A DNA stretch of 44,829 bases, from NCBI GenBank assembly GCA_043775535.1, contig JAYVSG010000127.1, positions 1 through 44,829 of the forward strand, in the 5' to 3' direction. How positions within the stretch are numbered: the stretch's first letter is position 1; each line of letters opens with the position of its first letter. Shown in pieces: positions 8,045-29,009 of the stretch. Origin of the DNA: Candidatus Omnitrophota bacterium (lineage in GTDB: Bacteria; Omnitrophota; Gorgyraeia; Zapsychrales; Fredricksoniimonadaceae). The notes under the pieces are model-generated. The model saw only the letters and a program-made list of their open reading frames with translations. It searched no databases and was not told where the DNA came from. The translations under genes and the position numbers were made by a program.

Positions 8045-8617
8045 ATGAAATATTGTGCGATGGTCTTGATGACTGCGTCATTGCTCTTGAGCGGTGCCTG
8101 CCAAACGTATGCAGCAGGAGGAGAAACCATGCCCAGGAGCATTTATGATCTTACCGTCAAGACCATCGATGGCCAGGAGAAGTCCCTTGCGGATTACAAG
8201 GGCAAGGCGCTTTTGATCGTGAATACCGCAAGCCATTGTGGCTTTACCTCGCAGTACAAAGGACTGGAAGCCCTATATCAGGAATATCGGTCCCAAGGTT
8301 TCGAAGTCCTGGGTTTCCCGGCCAATAATTTCATGGGCCAGGAGCCGGGCAGTAATGAAGAGATCAAGAAATTCTGCGAGTTGAAATACAAGACCACCTT
8401 CCCGATGTTTGCCAAGATCAGTGTGGCTGGAGGGGATCAAGCCCCGCTCTATGCCTACTTGACCAAGGAGAGCCCTTTCCCGGGATCTATCTCCTGGAAT
8501 TTCAACAAGTTCCTGATCGACCCCACGGGCCGGGTGGCTGCGCGTTTTGATTCCAGGGTGACTCCCCAAGCGCCTGAACTGGTGGAAGAGTTAAAGAAGG
8601 TCCTGCCCAAGCCGTAA
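8045..8617 (+). CDS. Glutathione peroxidase family protein with N-terminal signal peptide (Cys type)
   Basis: 190 aa. LIVNTASHCGFTSQY, FPANNFMGQEPG and WNFNKFLID motifs. A hydrophobic N-terminal leader precedes the mature domain. Confidence 0.9.
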   Translation: MKYCAMVLMTASLLLSGACQTYAAGGETMPRSIYDLTVKTIDGQEKSLADYKGKALLIVNTASHCGFTSQYKGLEALYQEYRSQGFEVLGFPANNFMGQEPGSNEEIKKFCELKYKTTFPMFAKISVAGGDQAPLYAYLTKESPFPGSISWNFNKFLIDPTGRVAARFDSRVTPQAPELVEELKKVLPKP

Positions 8618-8653
8618 GTGGCATCAAGTATATATATATGGTATCCTTTCGGC

Positions 8654-11600
8654 ATGTTCCGCAAGGGTGCCATTTTTTGCCTTATCCTGTCCTTTTTCTC
8701 TTCGACCGTGATCGGGCCGGCCTATGCCCAGGGGGTGCAGGAATTGCCTGTGCCGGGTGCCATGGTTGCCTTAAGCCCGGCCTTTGAACCGGTCTTGCTT
8801 AAAGGCCTTAAGGTCGATCCCCAGAACCCATTCGCTTTTGATTTCATTGTGGATACCGGCAGCGATCCCGTCATTGCAAACGAAGAAAAGCAATCCCAAT
8901 TAAAAGCAGAGGCCGACACCCTGATCAAATATTTCATGGCCGCCATGACGGTGCCTGAGAAGGACCTGTGGGTCAACCTTTCGCCCTATGAAAAAGACCG
9001 TATGATCGCCCCTGATCTTGGGCAGACGGAAATGGGACGGGACATGCTGGCCCAGGATTATGTGCTCAAGCAATTGACCGCCTCGCTGATCTATCCGGAG
9101 AAAGAATTGGGCAAGACATTCTGGGACAAGGTTTATGCCAAGTCCCGCGAACTTTACGGCACCACCGAGATACCGGTCAATACGTTCAATAAGGTCTGGA
9201 TCGTCGCTGACCGCGCCGACGTCTTCGAACGCGGAAATACGGCGTATGTCACAGGTGCGCATCTTAAGGTCATGCTTGCGGAAGACTATACAGCTATACA
9301 GAAGCAGATAGTTAAAGCGGGTGACCCGAAGGCGGGGACCCCGTACGCCCGCAGCGTAAGCGAGGACGAACGGGGTGCCGCAGGGGCAGGACCCGCTTCA
9401 CTAGCTTCTCAGATCGTCCGCGAAGTCATCCTTCCTGAATTGGAAAAAGAAGTGAATGCCGGCCAGAACTTTGCGCCGCTTCGACAGATGTTCTATGCCA
9501 TGATCCTGGCCTCCTGGTACAAGACCGCCCTCAAGGATGCGGTCCTGACCCAGGTCTATGGCAACCAGGGTAAGGTTTCCGTCGGTGTCAATGCGATGGA
9601 TGAAGGGGAGAAGGACAAGATCTTCGAGCGTTACCTGCAGGCCTACAAGAAGGGTGTGTTCAATTATATCAAGGACACGGCCGCTCCCGATGGTACATCC
9701 ATCCCTCGCAAATATTTCTCCGGCGGTGCCGACTTTGCCATGCTGGGCCGACCTGGCTTCCTGCATCGCAGCCAGACCGAGCTGCCGGCATCCGGCCTGA
9801 TCACGGGCAAGGCCTTCAAGGTCAGCGGGGATGCGGCCATGAACAGCGGGTCGTCATCTGTGCCGGACCAGACGGAACATCCGGATTTTGGCAGAATGTT
9901 CGATGCGAATGCACTTCTTACCTTCACAAGAGAGGATGCATACATTGATCTTCACCATTTGGGAGCTGCCATCTGGGCGGGGTTTCAGAGCAACAAAGCA
10001 GGGGTCAAAGGGATCACCATTCAAGATAAATTTGTTCTGCCTAAGGCAATGTTTTATAAGCTTGACCCGGATGGATTGGCACTACCTCTGTCTCAAGAGG
10101 AGATATCCCGACTGCCTAAAGAGACAGGGGTTGTTCACTTGAGATTGGATGATAAGAACGAAGCGTTTGCCTTCTTGTCCGGCGGCACCATTGTACTGGC
10201 CACATCCGGTTTTTCGATCGCTCCGGAACAAGATGCGGGAGACCAGCAGGCGGTCATAGACCGCCAGCAGCCCTTATATGCCAAGATGGTTTTGCTCACG
10301 GATCCCCGGCAAGCCATACGCAAGATGCTTAGGGAAGAGTTTGAGAAAAAAGGAGCGGTGGTCACTGAATTTGTCGGTAAGGAAGAGGACATTGTGCATC
10401 ATATCAGGGGCATCGATCTGGTCGTCATGGATGCGAGTGATGGGGGAACGGAGGAATCCAAGGACATGGCTATAGAGACCGCCAAGTTCCTAAGTGCCCA
10501 GGGAACCCCCGTTATCATGTTTACGCAACAGGATCCCACAGAAATAAACGGAGAATTATGGCGCCGGGGGATAACGGCTTCGGTCAAGGTTGCCGTTGTT
10601 GCCAAACAGTCCGGGCCGGTAAATATCATGTGGCATGCACGGCGAATGATCGAGGAGAAGGACAAGGCAATGTTGAGCTTGGTCTCCAGACCGCAATTGG
10701 ATTTTATGACAGATGTGCAGCCGAGATTCGATGCATTTCAGAAAGCCATTGAAGAAGTCGAACGGCTCTATCAAAAGCCGTACACGGATAAAGAAGCCCT
10801 TGCCCTGCTTTATCAGGAGGCATGGAAGAACAGCGGGGATCAGGAATCTTTATGGAATGCCTTGGTGAAAATAGAAGGCCTGCAGGAGGGCTTTGACCAA
10901 TACGAGCTTTCTCTTTTCACGCCGAAATTTGGTAATGTCGTCGACAAAGAAGATGTGCCGGAGATCCTTGAGGCGCACATGCAGCGGTCCATGGACCAGG
11001 CATATGCCCGGATGAAGGTCACTTTTGACGAGAGGATCAAAGATGCAACGGATGGAGAGCTGGAGGGCTTTTACGGTCTTTTTAGATGGGCACAAACAGA
11101 ATATCTGCGCGCCTTGGAAGATCCTGAAGATGCCCAGATAGGCGTGATGGCCATGTCCGCGCTTAATGCGGCACATGATTATTTTAGGGACAGAGCTCTG
11201 GATCTTGCAATGACGTCAAAGCCGGGCTCCCTTAAGGAGTCGATATCTAAGCGCCTAGCCCACTTCAGGTCTGAGGGCAATCATGCTATGGCGGACAATA
11301 TGATCGTGCTGATGGCTGTGCTGGTGCACGGCAATACTGGACCTATCGACCTTAAACAGTATGCAACAGAAGACAAGCTGCAAGAATTGATCGAAGATTT
11401 TGCATCAGCCGTTAGAAAGATGGGCAATGGCCCTTCAGCCTTGAGAGGGTTCTTAGCTCGGGGTTATCCTGTAGTTAAGAATGTAACGACCTTGGCGCCG
11501 GCATTTAATTTGGAAGCGCTTGTTGTATTCAGCGGTGTAAGGCATCGGGACTCCGCCATGACCGCCATTGTGGGCAGGGACGGTCTTTTGGCGCTGCCGG

Positions 11601-13192
11601 TGGGCGCGCGGGCCATATTGTTCACGGAGTCGGAGCATGACAAAGAGCAGCACCGTGACCGGGTGGCGACGGTTCTACGCACAGATGCCGCCAAAGGCAC
11701 CATTACGTTCGCGATCCCCATGAAAGGCTGGCCAAAAGACATCGAGGAGGAATATTTTGTGGATGAGTTTGGCGGGGAACGCAGGCTGAAGCTGATCAAG
11801 GCTATCCCATTGTCGAGCGAAGATGAAGCCACATGGGAGGAAGGCAAGGCGCTGCTCAAGAAGATACACGCGGAATTCAATAGGTTCAATGAATTTGGGC
11901 GAAGCGTGAGCGGGAATTTCAATGGGCTTGGGCATTTGATGGGAGGGCTCAATTCCGTTCTTTACCAGGAGTATTCCGATGTCATGGCCATGAATGCCAT
12001 GGACAAGGACTCGGATGAGGAAATGTTGACATTGCTTAAGATCATCCGCCGGCAGGTGGACAAATATTCGGACCAACAGGCGCGGTCAAAGATCTTGTCC
12101 GAGGCAAAAGATTTTCTGGCAAGATACAAGAACGTGCATGGAGATTCACGCGACGGCATGAAGAACACTTATTTTCTGTCGCTGTTCATCCAGGAAGTAT
12201 TTGAGAATGACGAGGAGTATGGGCATTTCGTCGACCATTTGAAGGTAGTCAAAGGTACGTTGGATGCCCATTCTGAGCGTATCAAAGACATTATCTCAGG
12301 GTTCTATCAACGCGACCAGCCCGATACTGTTCGAGACCCGGCCATGATCGGTGAATGGCGCAAGACGCGGCAGAACTTCATTTATAAATTCGCATGGGAG
12401 AGGGATAACGATAGTGTCATATTGGCCGTCAGTCCTGACTACCAGGACGGCGCCCGCGATGGACAGATCATTTATGAGATATTTCCCGTCCCATGGAAAG
12501 GGCAAAGTGAACAGGATATCATGGGCTTATATAAGGGGCATGTCACACTGACCCTAAAAGAGGGGGTGGTGACCGGCTGGCAGTCATTGGCTATTTCACC
12601 GCGCCGTGAGAAGGAGATGCCTTGGCTTGTTGGTTTCCTGGAGAGCAAACTTGAGACCTTAAAAGGAAAAATCTTATACCATGAGGCTACGTTCAGGGAA
12701 TTCGTTGAGACCTTCGCTCCCCAAGAGAAGGAAATTGCGTTGAGGGTTATGCAGATGTATCTCACCTATCTTGCAGGGGATCTGCCTGAATTCAACAAAG
12801 CCTCCCTTCCCGATAGTGTGGACATCTTCTTGGAGCGTTTTACACATACATTTCATGCTAAAACATTTTCCGATTTTAGGGATGTCGCCTTCTTGATGAG
12901 CCCTCTGAAGTATCAGGAAATGGTCGACTTGAGCATTCGTAATATATACACACAGATGACAGGGAGGCTCTTGGTCGAGTTCCGTGACCCGGCCATGGCC
13001 GTTACACCCGGCGGTATCGACCTTGACCGCGCCAAGATGCAGATGAATATTGAGAAAGAGGGCGAAGGGGTCAGGATGAAACTCAACCAGGAGCTGGTCG
13101 ACCGCATCCGGCGCCAGGGTTTTGACGGCCTGGAATTCAATATCCGCACCATTGTGCCTATCATCGACCTCAGGCAATTCCTATTTGCTTGA
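8654..13192 (+). CDS. Giant secreted protein of unknown function (~1,512 aa)
   Basis: Single uninterrupted ORF, 8618-13192 in the track. I prefer the ATG at 8654 because it yields a canonical Sec leader, MFRKGAIFCLILSFFSSTVIGPAYA|QG. No catalytic family motif recognised. Confidence 0.8.
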   Translation: MFRKGAIFCLILSFFSSTVIGPAYAQGVQELPVPGAMVALSPAFEPVLLKGLKVDPQNPFAFDFIVDTGSDPVIANEEKQSQLKAEADTLIKYFMAAMTVPEKDLWVNLSPYEKDRMIAPDLGQTEMGRDMLAQDYVLKQLTASLIYPEKELGKTFWDKVYAKSRELYGTTEIPVNTFNKVWIVADRADVFERGNTAYVTGAHLKVMLAEDYTAIQKQIVKAGDPKAGTPYARSVSEDERGAAGAGPASLASQIVREVILPELEKEVNAGQNFAPLRQMFYAMILASWYKTALKDAVLTQVYGNQGKVSVGVNAMDEGEKDKIFERYLQAYKKGVFNYIKDTAAPDGTSIPRKYFSGGADFAMLGRPGFLHRSQTELPASGLITGKAFKVSGDAAMNSGSSSVPDQTEHPDFGRMFDANALLTFTREDAYIDLHHLGAAIWAGFQSNKAGVKGITIQDKFVLPKAMFYKLDPDGLALPLSQEEISRLPKETGVVHLRLDDKNEAFAFLSGGTIVLATSGFSIAPEQDAGDQQAVIDRQQPLYAKMVLLTDPRQAIRKMLREEFEKKGAVVTEFVGKEEDIVHHIRGIDLVVMDASDGGTEESKDMAIETAKFLSAQGTPVIMFTQQDPTEINGELWRRGITASVKVAVVAKQSGPVNIMWHARRMIEEKDKAMLSLVSRPQLDFMTDVQPRFDAFQKAIEEVERLYQKPYTDKEALALLYQEAWKNSGDQESLWNALVKIEGLQEGFDQYELSLFTPKFGNVVDKEDVPEILEAHMQRSMDQAYARMKVTFDERIKDATDGELEGFYGLFRWAQTEYLRALEDPEDAQIGVMAMSALNAAHDYFRDRALDLAMTSKPGSLKESISKRLAHFRSEGNHAMADNMIVLMAVLVHGNTGPIDLKQYATEDKLQELIEDFASAVRKMGNGPSALRGFLARGYPVVKNVTTLAPAFNLEALVVFSGVRHRDSAMTAIVGRDGLLALPVGARAILFTESEHDKEQHRDRVATVLRTDAAKGTITFAIPMKGWPKDIEEEYFVDEFGGERRLKLIKAIPLSSEDEATWEEGKALLKKIHAEFNRFNEFGRSVSGNFNGLGHLMGGLNSVLYQEYSDVMAMNAMDKDSDEEMLTLLKIIRRQVDKYSDQQARSKILSEAKDFLARYKNVHGDSRDGMKNTYFLSLFIQEVFENDEEYGHFVDHLKVVKGTLDAHSERIKDIISGFYQRDQPDTVRDPAMIGEWRKTRQNFIYKFAWERDNDSVILAVSPDYQDGARDGQIIYEIFPVPWKGQSEQDIMGLYKGHVTLTLKEGVVTGWQSLAISPRREKEMPWLVGFLESKLETLKGKILYHEATFREFVETFAPQEKEIALRVMQMYLTYLAGDLPEFNKASLPDSVDIFLERFTHTFHAKTFSDFRDVAFLMSPLKYQEMVDLSIRNIYTQMTGRLLVEFRDPAMAVTPGGIDLDRAKMQMNIEKEGEGVRMKLNQELVDRIRRQGFDGLEFNIRTIVPIIDLRQFLFA

Positions 13193-13283: not shown

Positions 13284-14378
13284 ATGAAAGACGCCATACT
13301 ATATCTTGAAGACGGCGCTATTTTCCGCGGCCGGACTTTAAAAGAAACCGGAGAAACTGCAGGCGAAGCTGTCTTTAACACCGCGATGAGCGGGTACCAG
13401 GAAGTTTTGACCGACCCTTCCTATACCGGCCAGATCGTGGTGATGACCTATCCGCTGATCGGCAATTACGGCATCAACGACGACGACAACGAGTCTGACA
13501 AGGTCCACGTCAAAGGCTTTGTGGTCAAGGAATTCTGCCGCCGCCATTCCAATTGGCGCGCCACCAAAAGCCTCACCGAATATCTCAACGACAACAAGAT
13601 TATTGCCATGGAAGGGGTCGATACCCGCGCCCTGACCCGGCACCTGCGTGATGCCGGGGCCATGAAGGCCATGATTTCGACCGAAGACTTTGATCCTGCC
13701 AGTTTGAAACAAAAATTGGCCGCCATCCCTTCCATGGAAGGCGCGGACCTGGTCAAGGATGTCACCACCCCTAAGAAGTATGTGTGGAAGGCCAAGGGCC
13801 CGCGCAAATACAAGATCGCGGCCATTGATTGCGGCATCAAATGGAACATCCTGCGCATCCTGGCGGACTTGGGCTGTGAGACCCACGTCTTCCCGGCCAC
13901 GGCCACCCACAAAGAACTCATGTCGGTTAAGCCTGACGGCTTATTCCTGTCCAACGGCCCTGGCGACCCGGCGGTCGTGACCTATGTCACCAAGACGGTC
14001 CAAGAATCATTAGGGCAGCTGCCTATCTTCGGCATTTGCTTGGGCAACCAGATCCTCGGCCTTGCCTTGGGCGGCACCACCTATAAATTGAAATTCGGCC
14101 ATCACGGCGCGAATCACCCGGTCAAAGATCTTGAGGGCAACCGCATCGGCATCACTTCCCAGAACCATGGCTTCTGTGTGGACATCAAGAGCCTGGACCC
14201 CAAGGAAGTGGAAGTCATCCATACCAATTTGAACGACCAAAGCGTCGAGGGCATACGCCACAAGCGCCACCAGGCCTTTTCCATCCAGTACCATCCAGAA
14301 AGCGCGCCGGGCCCCCACGATTCCCAATATTTATTCAAGCAGTTCATCGATATGATCGAGGCGAAGAAGAATGCCTAA
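13284..14378 (+). CDS. carA: Carbamoyl-phosphate synthase small (glutaminase) subunit
   Basis: 364 aa. [14 protein letters not shown] (nucleophile Cys), HHGANHPV and QYHPE triad motifs. Confidence 0.95.
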
Positions 14379-17300
14379 GCGCACAGACTTAAAGAAAATA
14401 CTCATCATCGGCGCCGGCCCCATCGTCATTGGTCAGGCGTGTGAGTTCGACTATTCCGGTTCCCAGGCCTGCAAGGCGTTGAAGGAGGAAGGTTACCAGG
14501 TCGTTCTGGTCAATTCCAATCCCGCGACCATCATGACCGACCCGGAGATCGCGGACGCCACCTATGTCGAGCCTTTGACCCCGGAATTCATCGAGAAGGT
14601 TATCCAGAAAGAACGTCCCGACGCTATTTTGCCGACCTTAGGCGGGCAGACGGGCCTGAACCTTGCCATGAAGCTCTATGAGCAGGGCATCCTGGCCAAA
14701 TACCATGTGGAAATGCTGGGCGCCAAATATGAAGTGATCAAGAAGGCCGAAGACCGCAGCGAATTCAAGGCTGCTGCGATCAAGGTGGGTCTGGATGTGC
14801 CCAAGAGCCTCTTTGCCTATAATGTCGAAGAGGCCAAGAAGGCCGCGGAAACCATGGGCTTTCCCTGTATCATCCGTGCGTCCTTTACCCTGGGAGGAAC
14901 CGGCGGCGGCATTTGCCGTGACATGGAAGAATTCGAACGTGTCGCGGCCTTGGGGATCGAAAGCTCCATGACCCATGAGATCCTGATCGAGGAATCCATT
15001 GAAGGCTGGAAGGAATATGAACTTGAACTGATGCGTGACGGCGCGGACAATGTGGTCATCGTCTGTTCCATCGAGAATCTAGACCCCATGGGCGTCCACA
15101 CCGGCGACAGCATCACGGTCGCCCCTGCACAGACTTTGTCCGATGCTGAATACCAGACCATGCGCGATCATTCCATCCGCCTGATCCGTGAGATCGGTGT
15201 TGAGACCGGCGGTTCCAATATCCAATTCGCCGTTGATCCCAAGGACGGCCGCATGGTCGTCATTGAAATGAACCCGCGCGTGTCCCGTTCCTCGGCTCTG
15301 GCTTCCAAGGCCACAGGTTTCCCCATTGCCAAGTTCGCGGCCAAACTCGCCGTTGGTTATTCGCTCGATGAGATCCAGAACGACATCACGCGTGAGACCC
15401 CGGCCTGTTTCGAGCCGTCCATCGACTATGTGGTGGTCAAGATCCCGCGCTTCACCTTTGAGAAATTTCCGGAAGCAAAAGACATTTTAGGCATCCAGAT
15501 GAAATCCGTGGGCGAGACCATGGCCATCGGTCGCAATTTCAAGGAAGCCCTGCAAAAAGGCCTACGTGGCCTTGAGATCGACCATATCGGCCTCGACAAC
15601 AAGCAGGATTTCAGGGACATTGAGGACGAGAAGGTGCGCCTGCGCCTCAAGGAACCCAATGCCTCACGCATCTTTTATTTGAAATATGCCCTGCAAAAAG
15701 GCTGGTCCATCGACGATGTGTCCAAGATCAGCCTGATCGATCCCTGGTTCATCGACCAGATTGCCCAGATCCTCGAGCTTGAGAACCATTTGAAGGCCGT
15801 GGTCGCTGCTACCGGCACCGTCAGCCCGGAGCTGCTGCGCCAGGCTAAGGAATACGGGTTTTCCGACGCCCAATTGGGTGAGTTCCTCGAGAAGAGCGAG
15901 AAGGATGTGCGCGCGCTGCGCAAGGACATGGGCGTCGTCGCCACCTTCAAGGTGGTCGATACCTGTGCCGCTGAGTTCGAGGCCTATACGCCGTATTATT
16001 ATTCCACCTATGAGACCGAGGACGAAGCGGTGCTCAACAATGCCCGCCGCAAAAGCAAAAAGAAGAAGATCATGATCCTGGGCGGTGGTCCCAACCGCAT
16101 CGGCCAGGGGATCGAATTCGATTACTGCTGCTGCCATGCCTCGTTCGCGCTCAAGGACATGGGATTCGAGACCATCATGGTCAATTCCAATCCGGAGACC
16201 GTGTCGACCGACTACGATACTTCCGACCGTCTGTATTTCGAACCGCTGACCTTTGAAGACGTGATGAATATCTATGACATCGAGAAGCCCGACGGTGTGA
16301 TCGTGCAATTCGGCGGCCAGACGCCTTTGAACCTGGCCCGCAGGCTGCACCAGGCCGGGGTGCCCATCATAGGCACATCGGTCGATTCCATCGACATGGC
16401 CGAGAACCGCGAACATTTTTCGAAGCTGATCACCGAAATGAAGATCGCCCAACCGGCCAATGCCTCGACCACCACCAAGGACGAGACCCTGGCCGCGGCG
16501 CTCAAGGTCGGCTATCCAGTCCTGGTGCGTCCTTCATTCGTCCTGGGCGGACGGGCCATGCGCATTGTCTATGATGAAGAATCACTGCGGTCATTCTTGG
16601 ATGAGGTCCATAGCGTTTCGCGCGGCCATCCGGTCTTGATCGATAAGTTCTTGGAAGACGCACAGGAAGTGGACGTGGATGCCATCTGCGACGGGGAAGA
16701 TGTCTTCGTTGCCGGCGTCATGGAACATATTGAGAATGCAGGCATCCATTCCGGCGATTCCGCCTGTGTGCTGCCGCCGCACACCTTGAGCGAGGAAGTC
16801 ATCAAGGACATCAAGGCACATACCGTGCGTCTGGCCATGGCCCTCAAGGTTATCGGTCTTTTGAATATCCAGTTCGCGGTCAAGGGACGCCAGGTCTATG
16901 TGCTGGAAGTCAACCCGCGCGCCTCACGCACGTCGCCCTTTGTGTCCAAGGCCACGGGCGTGCCGCTGGCCAAGATCGCGGCCCAGATCATGGCCGGGAA
17001 GAAATTGAAGGAATACGACCTGCCCAACCCCGACGACCTTAAATATTTCGCGGTCAAGGAATCGGTATTGCCGTTTTCGCGCTTCTCAGGCGTTGACATC
17101 ATCCTGGGACCGGAGATGAAATCCACCGGCGAGGTCATGGGCACGGCGCCGACCTTTGGCGTGGCCTTTGCCAAGGCGCAGATCTCGGCCAACCAGTCGC
17201 TGCCCACATCGGGCACCGTCTTTATCAGCGTCAATGAACAGGACAAGCGCCAGGTGGCCTTCATGGCCAAGAAGCTGGCCGACCTCAAGTTCAAGATCTT

Positions 17301-17619
17301 CGCGACCAAGGGAACATCTAAGGTCTTGCGTTCCGCCGGGCTTTCGGTCACCATCGTCGACAAGGCCCAGGAGGGTGAAAATAATGCCTTGACCTTGGTC
17401 AAGAAAGGTGAGATAAACTTAATTATCAATACGCCTTCGGGTAAGAAGAGCCAGAGCGACATGCGCTCCATCCGCGCGGCTTCGATCCTGCACAATATCC
17501 CCTGCATCACTACCTTGCAGGGTGCCTGGGCCGCGGTCAACGGCATTGAGGCGATCCTTAAAGAAGAATTCACCGTCGAACCATTACAGACGCTGTACCA
17601 GACAAAGGTGGTTGTATAA
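14371..17619 (+). CDS. carB: Carbamoyl-phosphate synthase large subunit
   Basis: 1082 aa. [33 protein letters not shown], a duplicated ATP-grasp halves pattern, and a C-terminal MGS-like domain. 8-nt overlap with carA. Confidence 0.95.
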
Positions 17620-28199: not shown

Positions 28200-29009
28200 T
28201 TAGTCATCGTTCTGCAGCAGGGACGCTGTGATCATCACGCCGAGGATGGTCAAGACGTAGACAAGCTTTTCCAGGACACCGTGAAAATTCGAATCAGCGG
28301 ACATCACGCCGAAATTCATCGCGAATCCTGCCGTCAGGACCAGGCGCAGGATATTGATGGAAAAGGCCAACGGGATGAGGGAGGCCAGGATCGCCCATCT
28401 TTTCACCGTTGAAGCGCTTTGGATGTAGGCATAGGGCGCGGCGAAACCGGCCAGCAGCACGGTTGAATAAAAGACCGTCATGTCGCCGTGCAGGGGGATC
28501 GTGTATTTAGGGATGTTGAGGAACGCGCCTTCGGTCGACGAGGGCACCTGGAGCGCAGTCAGAAGCCAGGCAGTGCCGTGCACGATCACGGCGTTGAGCT
28601 GTGCCGATAAGGCGGCCGTCCAGGCGTCGGGGATCGAAAAGACAGCAATGGCATAGAGTGCGGCAAGCGGCAAGGCGCGGGCAGTGCCATTGTCCTTATG
28701 TTCCTTGACGGCAGCGCGTGCGGGCATGACTTCATCAGAAGGCCGGATGTCGACCTGGTTGGAAAATATTTTCACTTCTTCAAGGATACGTGAGCTGATG
28801 GGTTCGGCAGCAGGGGCAGCAGCCTGTTCAGCCATTGCGTTCTCGACAGCTTCCTTGATGACCGCCTGTTTGGAGGCAGTTTCACGCGCTTCCTCGACGC
28901 GCTGGGCAGTTTCCTGCTGGATCCGGCGCTGTTCGGTCATTTCAATGATCTGCCGGGTGGTGTATTTACGGCGATAAGATGTGGGAGCGGGTGTTGTTTG
29001 GTCTGACAT
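28200..29009 (-). CDS. Polytopic membrane protein, tentatively exosortase/archaeosortase-like, with a ~110-aa charged N-terminal extension
   Basis: 269 aa with about 5 TM helices. PLAFSINILRLVLT (N..R motif) and FHGVLEKL (H..G) resemble exosortase signature blocks. No Cys at the expected CSG position. Confidence 0.35.
   Translation of the reverse strand: MSDQTTPAPTSYRRKYTTRQIIEMTEQRRIQQETAQRVEEARETASKQAVIKEAVENAMAEQAAAPAAEPISSRILEEVKIFSNQVDIRPSDEVMPARAAVKEHKDNGTARALPLAALYAIAVFSIPDAWTAALSAQLNAVIVHGTAWLLTALQVPSSTEGAFLNIPKYTIPLHGDMTVFYSTVLLAGFAAPYAYIQSASTVKRWAILASLIPLAFSINILRLVLTAGFAMNFGVMSADSNFHGVLEKLVYVLTILGVMITASLLQNDD

Follow-up and report, generated by a model that had tools for sequence, protein, structure and literature searches.

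The gene at positions 8654..13192 (forward strand) of the window, a 44,829-nucleotide stretch of contig JAYVSG010000127.1 from a Candidatus Omnitrophota bacterium (GCA_043775535.1), encodes a protein whose last 68 residues form a tail that is securely identified as the constant module at the C-terminal end of a hitherto undescribed protein family of Omnitrophota. In this family a conserved N-terminal head and the tail enclose a variable region, here termed the cargo; in order, a member consists of a Sec signal peptide, the ~350-aa head ending in YFSGG, one to many unrelated cargo modules with D-x-A-M between them, a final D-x-A-M, and GGID(L/F) with ~55 further residues. It is suspected, with a probability of roughly 45%, that head and tail act as a two-part frame around the cargo, the tail being its closing half; by this proposed mechanism the tail would be neither an autonomous domain nor a sortase-type signal. 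The features of the gene are as follows, with residues numbered from an alternative GTG start at 8618.

8654..13192, forward strand: whole gene, 1,512 amino acids (aa) from the ATG at 8654; the list of open reading frames (ORFs) gives the longer GTG form from 8618, of 1,524 aa
8654..8731, forward strand: Sec-type signal peptide MFRKGAIFCLILSFFSSTVIGPAYA/Q, read directly from the sequence; the n-h-AxA layout is also seen at the starts of family members
8732..9727, forward strand: conserved head domain, ~330-350 aa, ending in an invariant YFSGG
9731..12985, forward strand: variable cargo region, split by D-x-A-M, without Pfam match
9731, 9830, 10661, 11201, 11549 and 12335, forward strand: D-x-A-M sites in the cargo (residues 372, 405, 682, 862, 978 and 1240)
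12986..12997, forward strand: last D-x-A-M junction (DPAM, residue 1457), directly before the tail
13010..13024, forward strand: GGIDL core, the sole invariant part of the tail (GGID in 15/15 genome copies; 98-100% conserved in 76 tails)
13025..13189, forward strand: tail body with a predicted β-hairpin (~13052-13075), a predicted helix (~13088-13117) and a Pro-containing hydrophobic end, LEFNIRTIVPIIDLRQFLFA (13130-13189)

The ATG at 8654 is a likelier start than the GTG at 8618, and the product in the public collection, at 1,512 aa, matches the ATG.

The constant tail and its distribution

It had been claimed in the initial annotation of this DNA that the protein ends in a ~68-aa tail with DPAM-x4-GGIDL, and the translation bears this out, with positions 12986-13189 (forward strand) giving DPAMAVTPGGIDLDRAKMQMNIEKEGEGVRMKLNQELVDRIRRQGFDGLEFNIRTIVPIIDLRQFLFA, in which ~55 residues come after DPAM-x4-GGIDL, and the stop lying at 13190. 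A search of the source genome (1.79 Mb, 279 contigs, 90% complete) with a 69-aa tail query matched 14 places. The profile search that the annotation had proposed, iterated over 16,835 ORFs of at least 50 aa, converged on 15 ORFs and a further one truncated at a contig end, with E values of 1e-18 to 1e-29, so that 15-16 other large ORFs end in the same module. All of these matches sit at the C-terminal end of their ORF. About 17-20 genes of this 1.8-Mb genome end in the tail, and 24 ORF pieces amount to 18,366 aa, or ~3% of the assembly.

A profile built from the 15 tails, searched against 1.84 billion representative proteins, yielded 6,330 clusters (50% identity) at E ≤ 1e-3, of which 3,219 remain at E ≤ 1e-10. 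Of the 150 best hits, 149 have a match that stops no more than 23 residues short of the C-terminus, and 67 have an exact D-x-A-M in the 14 aa preceding GGID. A word-indexed search with the tail region returned the query itself as the sole match. The view that this is a dedicated conserved C-terminal module of a multi-member family is upheld by the 15 ORFs and one cut copy in the genome and by the public clusters; neither uniqueness to this one protein nor correspondence to a described domain was found. The tail matched no PEP-CTERM, LPXTG or type IX secretion system C-terminal domain (T9SS CTD) model in Pfam or NCBIfam, for the T9SS CTD at E values up to 1, in line with the annotation's statement that it is unlike all three, and nothing credible was returned for the whole protein. 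The tail has neither an LPXTG nor a PEP motif.

The family consensus of the tail consists of D-x-A-M, 3-6 residues, GGID(L/F)N, a hairpin near (D/E)G-x-G(V/I), often DPA-x-L, then G(F/L)-x-PVI-x-x-I-x-P and L-x-x-(L/F)LG. The window copy retains GGIDL and the hairpin and is slightly atypical at its end, which reads LEFNIRTIVPIIDLRQFLFA instead of GF-x-PVIINI-x-P-x3-L-x2-LLG and has an atypical last strand, LEFNIRTIVPII. This end carries R, D, R and prolines, and the tail contains no transmembrane helix and no basic cluster. A second DPAM lies inside the consensus tail and is absent from the window's own tail.

Phyletic counts were taken over 201 genomes sampled across the phylum. This tail type occurs in 11 of them, namely all eight sampled genomes of four families in the window's order, the window's genome and two elsewhere in the class, and the number of copies reaches at least 28 in a genome of the same genus (95% complete). 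A 1,516-aa candidate for an ortholog of the window gene in that same-genus genome was ruled out, its cargo and context both being different. The head was found in 26 of the 201 genomes, all of the same class, 15 of which are without this tail type. A head-pattern scan of species-representative genomes gave at least 594 loci, and the 80 of these that were listed are all titled Candidatus Omnitrophota/Omnitrophica or "uncultured Planctomycetales" bins. The annotation's mention of GGIDL/GGIDF tails in candidate-phylum proteins fits Omnitrophota. Literature text searches returned nothing relevant for GGIDL or D-x-A-M in this context, and text searches of two papers on Omnitrophota giant proteins (10.1101/2023.11.21.568195 and 10.64898/2026.06.07.730766) for C-terminus, sorting, signal peptide and the like gave nothing on a constant tail or a head/tail frame.

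Head, cargo and the D-x-A-M motif

The head of the window protein is 48-59% identical to those of its paralogs, and the paralogs share a ~370-aa N-terminal head and the tail with nothing in common between them. Many columns of the head are invariant across 73 homologues. The head alignment has ~80 invariant positions, none of which is His or Cys, the invariant polar residues being S, K, D, E and R (e.g. WVNLSPYE..R, T.MGRD.L..DY.LKQ and FNKVW). No match to the head was obtained in Pfam, among PDB sequences or with Foldseek.

Of the complete genes lying within contigs of the source genome, 7/7 have both head and tail, and head-only or tail-only ORFs are all cut by contig ends, except for a 114-aa remnant on contig C88 (upstream stop). 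Homologues that had been recovered essentially through the head carry the tail in 111/111 cases, and 20 stretches from relatives hold 38 ORFs with both parts, the single-part ORFs being located at the ends of the fetched stretches. A Sec signal peptide is likewise present in every complete gene. Because it always accompanies the conserved head, the tail is not a free tag, and the notion of a tag added to otherwise unrelated proteins is contradicted. Identity between heads is correlated with identity between tails (r = 0.80, a value as high being obtained in 0/999 permutations); cargo is homologous in <1% of pairs, even where heads are 80-90% identical.

Several candidates for separate parts were rejected. 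The short tail ORFs of relatives are truncated where their contigs end, and two short tail proteins on long contigs proved to be pieces of frameshifted low-coverage long-read assemblies. Two apparent cargo-less members (loci L134 and L152) are tandem genes, in which a tail is directly adjoined by the head of the following gene. At these tandem loci the next ATG overlaps the end of the preceding gene by 4 nt in L134 (ATGA, 686-689) and by 26 nt in L152 (688-713), which suggests that successive family members may be translationally coupled.

The window protein contains seven D-x-A-M motifs against 0.34 expected, a number reached in 0/5,000 shuffles, and within the family the motif is 37-fold enriched relative to other ORFs. 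A signal at the DNA level was considered and rejected: the Ala before Met is encoded by GCC in ~71% of cases genome-wide, so that the GCC-ATG excess reflects a codon-pair bias of the whole genome, and D-x-A-M is accordingly a feature of the protein.

The cargo of homologues contains Pfam domains of cytoplasm type (PGK, adenosine deaminase, PP2C, protein kinase, HATPase, REC, GNAT, NUDIX, DnaJ and M48), and among the proteins carried by the family are kinases, phosphatases, deaminases, methyltransferases, response regulators and peptidases, types that a Sec signal does not usually precede. The family proteins are mostly 0.6-3.5 thousand aa (kaa) long.

Some cargo regions contain further signals. 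In a paralog on contig C252 (~nt 12830-12930, residues ~437-470) a Tat-like twin-arginine signal lies within the cargo straight after D-x-A-M (DRAM-SSDMGRRQFLSKLGIAIAGVSAGVML), and the cargo of protein P0285 likewise shows DRAM-MTRRNFLSSSVAAGIGL, also a Tat-like signal. Judged from these sequences, it looks as if whole genes, signal peptide included, had been captured as cargo. The C252 paralog also has an HExxH motif (AHEVAH). Rare internal GGID(L/F) mini-copies adjoin D-x-A-M in P0041 (605-636), P0082 (536-585), P0031 (21), P0054 (984) and P0285 (734), possibly left over from events in which two family genes were fused.

In the 15 head-bearing genomes without this tail type, a GG motif persists at the end of the proteins, with a different sequence after it. 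Three such ends, GLGGIDLRNMRINLR, VGGLLLSQVRLR and LGGILLTRISITSIPV, each running to the stop, consist of GG and ~10 strand-like residues, and a fourth has GGIDFRxLP(M/I)T followed by a ~100-aa helical domain without Pfam match; the alternative tails have no match in Pfam or NCBIfam. The helical domain contains Cys and ends in ALVIVDS. In these sister lineages (L027-L038) the heads are 31-38% identical, D-x-A-M occurs 0-1 times per protein, and SSP or SSSP often stands before the terminal GG motif. In all lineages the head ends in YFSGG-hydrophobic-(D/E/N)-hydrophobic, which mirrors the GG-I-D-L at the start of the tail.

Structure models and a proposed frame around the cargo

When the tail alone was modelled with AlphaFold2 (AF2) from a 76-sequence alignment, the predicted local distance difference test score (pLDDT) was 69 and the predicted template modelling score (pTM) 0.30, with strands at tail residues 29-31 and 34-36, a helix at 41-50 and an extended end. 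The tail on its own is thus not predicted as a confident fold. In a full-length model of a 600-aa complete member (73 homologues), pLDDT was ~85-90 for the head and 70-74 for the tail. DSSP assignment of this model gave no strand in residues 375-547 and one strand in the tail, at 548-552, just after GGIDL; the DPAM within the tail was placed at a helix N-cap. Since a lone strand needs a partner, the model would have to pair it with a strand of the head region, and the candidate left unpaired, as deduced from the DSSP string, is 368-374, just before the first D-x-A-M. Foldseek searches of PDB gave no match for the tail model or the full-length model, and no PDB sequence relative was found for the tail profile.

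It is proposed that, after Sec export, the first β-strand of the tail, just past GGIDL, would add onto a strand of the head region. The cargo would thereby be enclosed by two similar GG-hydrophobic-acidic-hydrophobic boundaries, and head and tail could then serve as one handle that decides the fate of the cargo, be it retention, display or onward secretion. The D-x-A-M just upstream of the tail may be a release point. The sister lineages fit strand addition, as GG plus one amphipathic strand is the universal core of the tail and is too small for a domain, and the likeness between the tail and post-head profiles is no more than suggestive. The frame is also favoured by the size of the family and the terminal position of the tail, by the constant company and the co-divergence of head and tail around exchanged cargo, by the low confidence of the isolated tail model, and by the lack of a recurrent neighbouring gene in 20 loci.

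Several observations weigh against the frame. The pairing of head and tail comes solely from the DSSP string of one model of medium confidence, and the similarity between the tail and the segment that follows the head is weak (hhalign P = 0.001, probability 21%). Simple co-inheritance within one gene would produce the same co-divergence. Mean-field direct coupling analysis, underpowered at an effective number of sequences (Meff) of ~120, gave no clustered head-tail couplings, and head-tail pairs made up 10 of the top 60, under the 26% expected by chance. Finally, a member without cargo was not found, the two apparent cases being tandem genes.

Alternative roles, known systems and significance

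The initial annotation had pointed to an exosortase-like membrane protein encoded 15 kb away. The ORF at 28200-29009 (reverse strand) is indeed of the exosortase family (PF09721, E 2.5e-13), if divergent, its best NCBIfam match being to XrtV and far below the cut-off. A link to the tail is contradicted by distribution: PF09721 is found in 3/11 tail-bearing genomes against 43/190 others, and the eight tail-bearing genomes without an exosortase match include the same-genus genome with its 28 or more tail genes. The source genome also encodes a single ordinary PEP-CTERM protein (contig C19:4478-4546, PF07589 scan), so that the exosortase has a possible substrate other than the tail. Sortase was searched for in the genome and none was found, whereas positive controls were detected. 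It is therefore hardly conceivable that the tail is a signal of exosortase, sortase or rhombosortase type processed by the product of 28200-29009, for which the proximity of a genuine exosortase gene speaks. As in PEP-CTERM/exosortase, LPXTG and GlyGly-CTERM systems, the module is C-terminal and an exosortase is encoded in the genome, but the tail lacks their motif (PF07589 / TIGR02595), transmembrane helix and basic end.

Co-occurring processing or secretion genes had also been suggested as something to be looked for by phyletic pattern, and neither of the two candidates checked, exosortase and ShlB/TpsB, tracks the tail. The ShlB/TpsB-type transporter gene (PF03865) is present in the source genome, in 7/11 tail-bearing genomes and in 85/190 others, and a link to two-partner secretion was ruled out on this pattern. 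The family does resemble the TpsA/CdiA proteins of such systems in its Sec signal, conserved N-terminal domain and long variable regions. It differs in that the head has no Haemagg_act/TPS match and is predicted to be helix-rich α/β rather than a β-helix, and TpsB is absent from 4/11 tail-bearing genomes. TpsA proteins have no constant C-terminal tail. For SprA (PF14349) no match was obtained in the genome, and the control genomes gave none either. Six secretin genes (PF00263) are present in the 1.79-Mb genome, on contigs C37, C4, C23, C129, C40 and C73.

No recurrent non-family neighbour was found beside family genes in 20 loci. In the window, the end of a glutathione peroxidase gene (8045-8617) is one base away from the GTG and 36 nt from the likely ATG, and with this gene so close upstream the family gene is probably co-transcribed with a housekeeping gene and does not belong to a dedicated operon. 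The ORFs downstream, 13284-14378 and 14371-17619, are taken, from their translations, to be putative carA and carB.

It is possible, if rather unlikely, that the tail is a C-terminal secretion or sorting domain read in trans, perhaps together with the head, by a putative outer-membrane machine that moves or anchors the protein, following a T9SS-like logic. In keeping with this, the tail is strictly terminal on proteins with a Sec signal, comprises ~60 aa with β-elements, belongs to a very large family with diverse cargo, as would be expected of a shared export handle, and occurs in a genome with six secretins. The CTD of T9SS (Por_Secr_tail) in Bacteroidota is comparable, being a conserved C-terminal module of ~60-80 aa on Sec-exported proteins with diverse passengers and many copies per genome. 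Unlike that domain (TIGR04183 / Pfam Por_Secr_tail), the tail has no model match, does not form a stable β-sandwich alone in AF2 and is obligatorily paired with an N-terminal head. Reading in trans is further disfavoured by the lack of co-distributed or neighbouring machinery among the exosortase, TpsB and 20 loci examined, by the absence of any tail without a head, and by the sister lineages, which swap most of the tail but keep the head. The motif is followed by a variable extension of 0-23 residues, so the free C-terminus is not what is read.

That the tail is a removable pro-piece, cut at the last D-x-A-M or at GG, is considered improbable. Its role would be transient, for example in keeping the cargo unfolded or inactive or in recruiting a protease. 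D-x-A-M stands 3-10 residues upstream of GGID in many members, its 37-fold enrichment marks module borders, the consensus tail holds the second DPAM, and the double glycine is the most widely conserved element, all of which would suit such processing. Yet no protease is adjacent or universally present, the helix N-cap position of the tail DPAM in the model means that the motif may be structural, and the window tail has no internal DPAM. It should be noted that the frame, the trans-acting signal, the pro-piece and the sortase-type signal are not fully exclusive of one another.

MARTX and polymorphic toxins also have constant delivery parts that frame exchangeable effector-like modules, with short conserved junctions suggestive of processing. 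The present family differs from MARTX in that no RTX repeats, cysteine protease domain or architecture of type I secretion systems (T1SS) were detected with Pfam, and in its Sec signal peptide, the constancy of both ends, the D-x-A-M junction and a cargo of mostly cytoplasm-type enzymes. The giant proteins of Omnitrophota (West-Roberts et al., 2023, 10.1101/2023.11.21.568195; 10.64898/2026.06.07.730766) are likewise long and multi-domain, exported or associated with membranes, and have a Pfam content of cytoplasm type. These come from the same phylum and are 10 kaa or more in length, against mostly 0.6-3.5 kaa here. What is new in the present analysis are the tail-specific tests, the exclusion of exosortase and TpsB, the shrunken and alternative tails of sister lineages, and the similarity of motif between head end and tail start. 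As judged from sequence and model searches, neither head nor tail appears to resemble any described domain, fold or secretion signal.

A broader and more doubtful proposal is that head and tail form a clasp around freely swappable protein-sized cargo, which would be inserted between the two similar boundaries and cut at D-x-A-M. The result would be a bacterial "cassette carrier" or polyprotein system, and host-dependent nanobacteria of the Omnitrophota would use it to send out dozens of enzymes of cytoplasm type, perhaps into the cells of prey or hosts, through an unrecognised machinery. The role of the constant ends would account for the way in which an uncultured phylum, probably dependent on hosts, puts a large part of its proteome to use. 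These ends could also reveal a new route of export or processing, together with a natural scaffold that tolerates almost any inserted domain.

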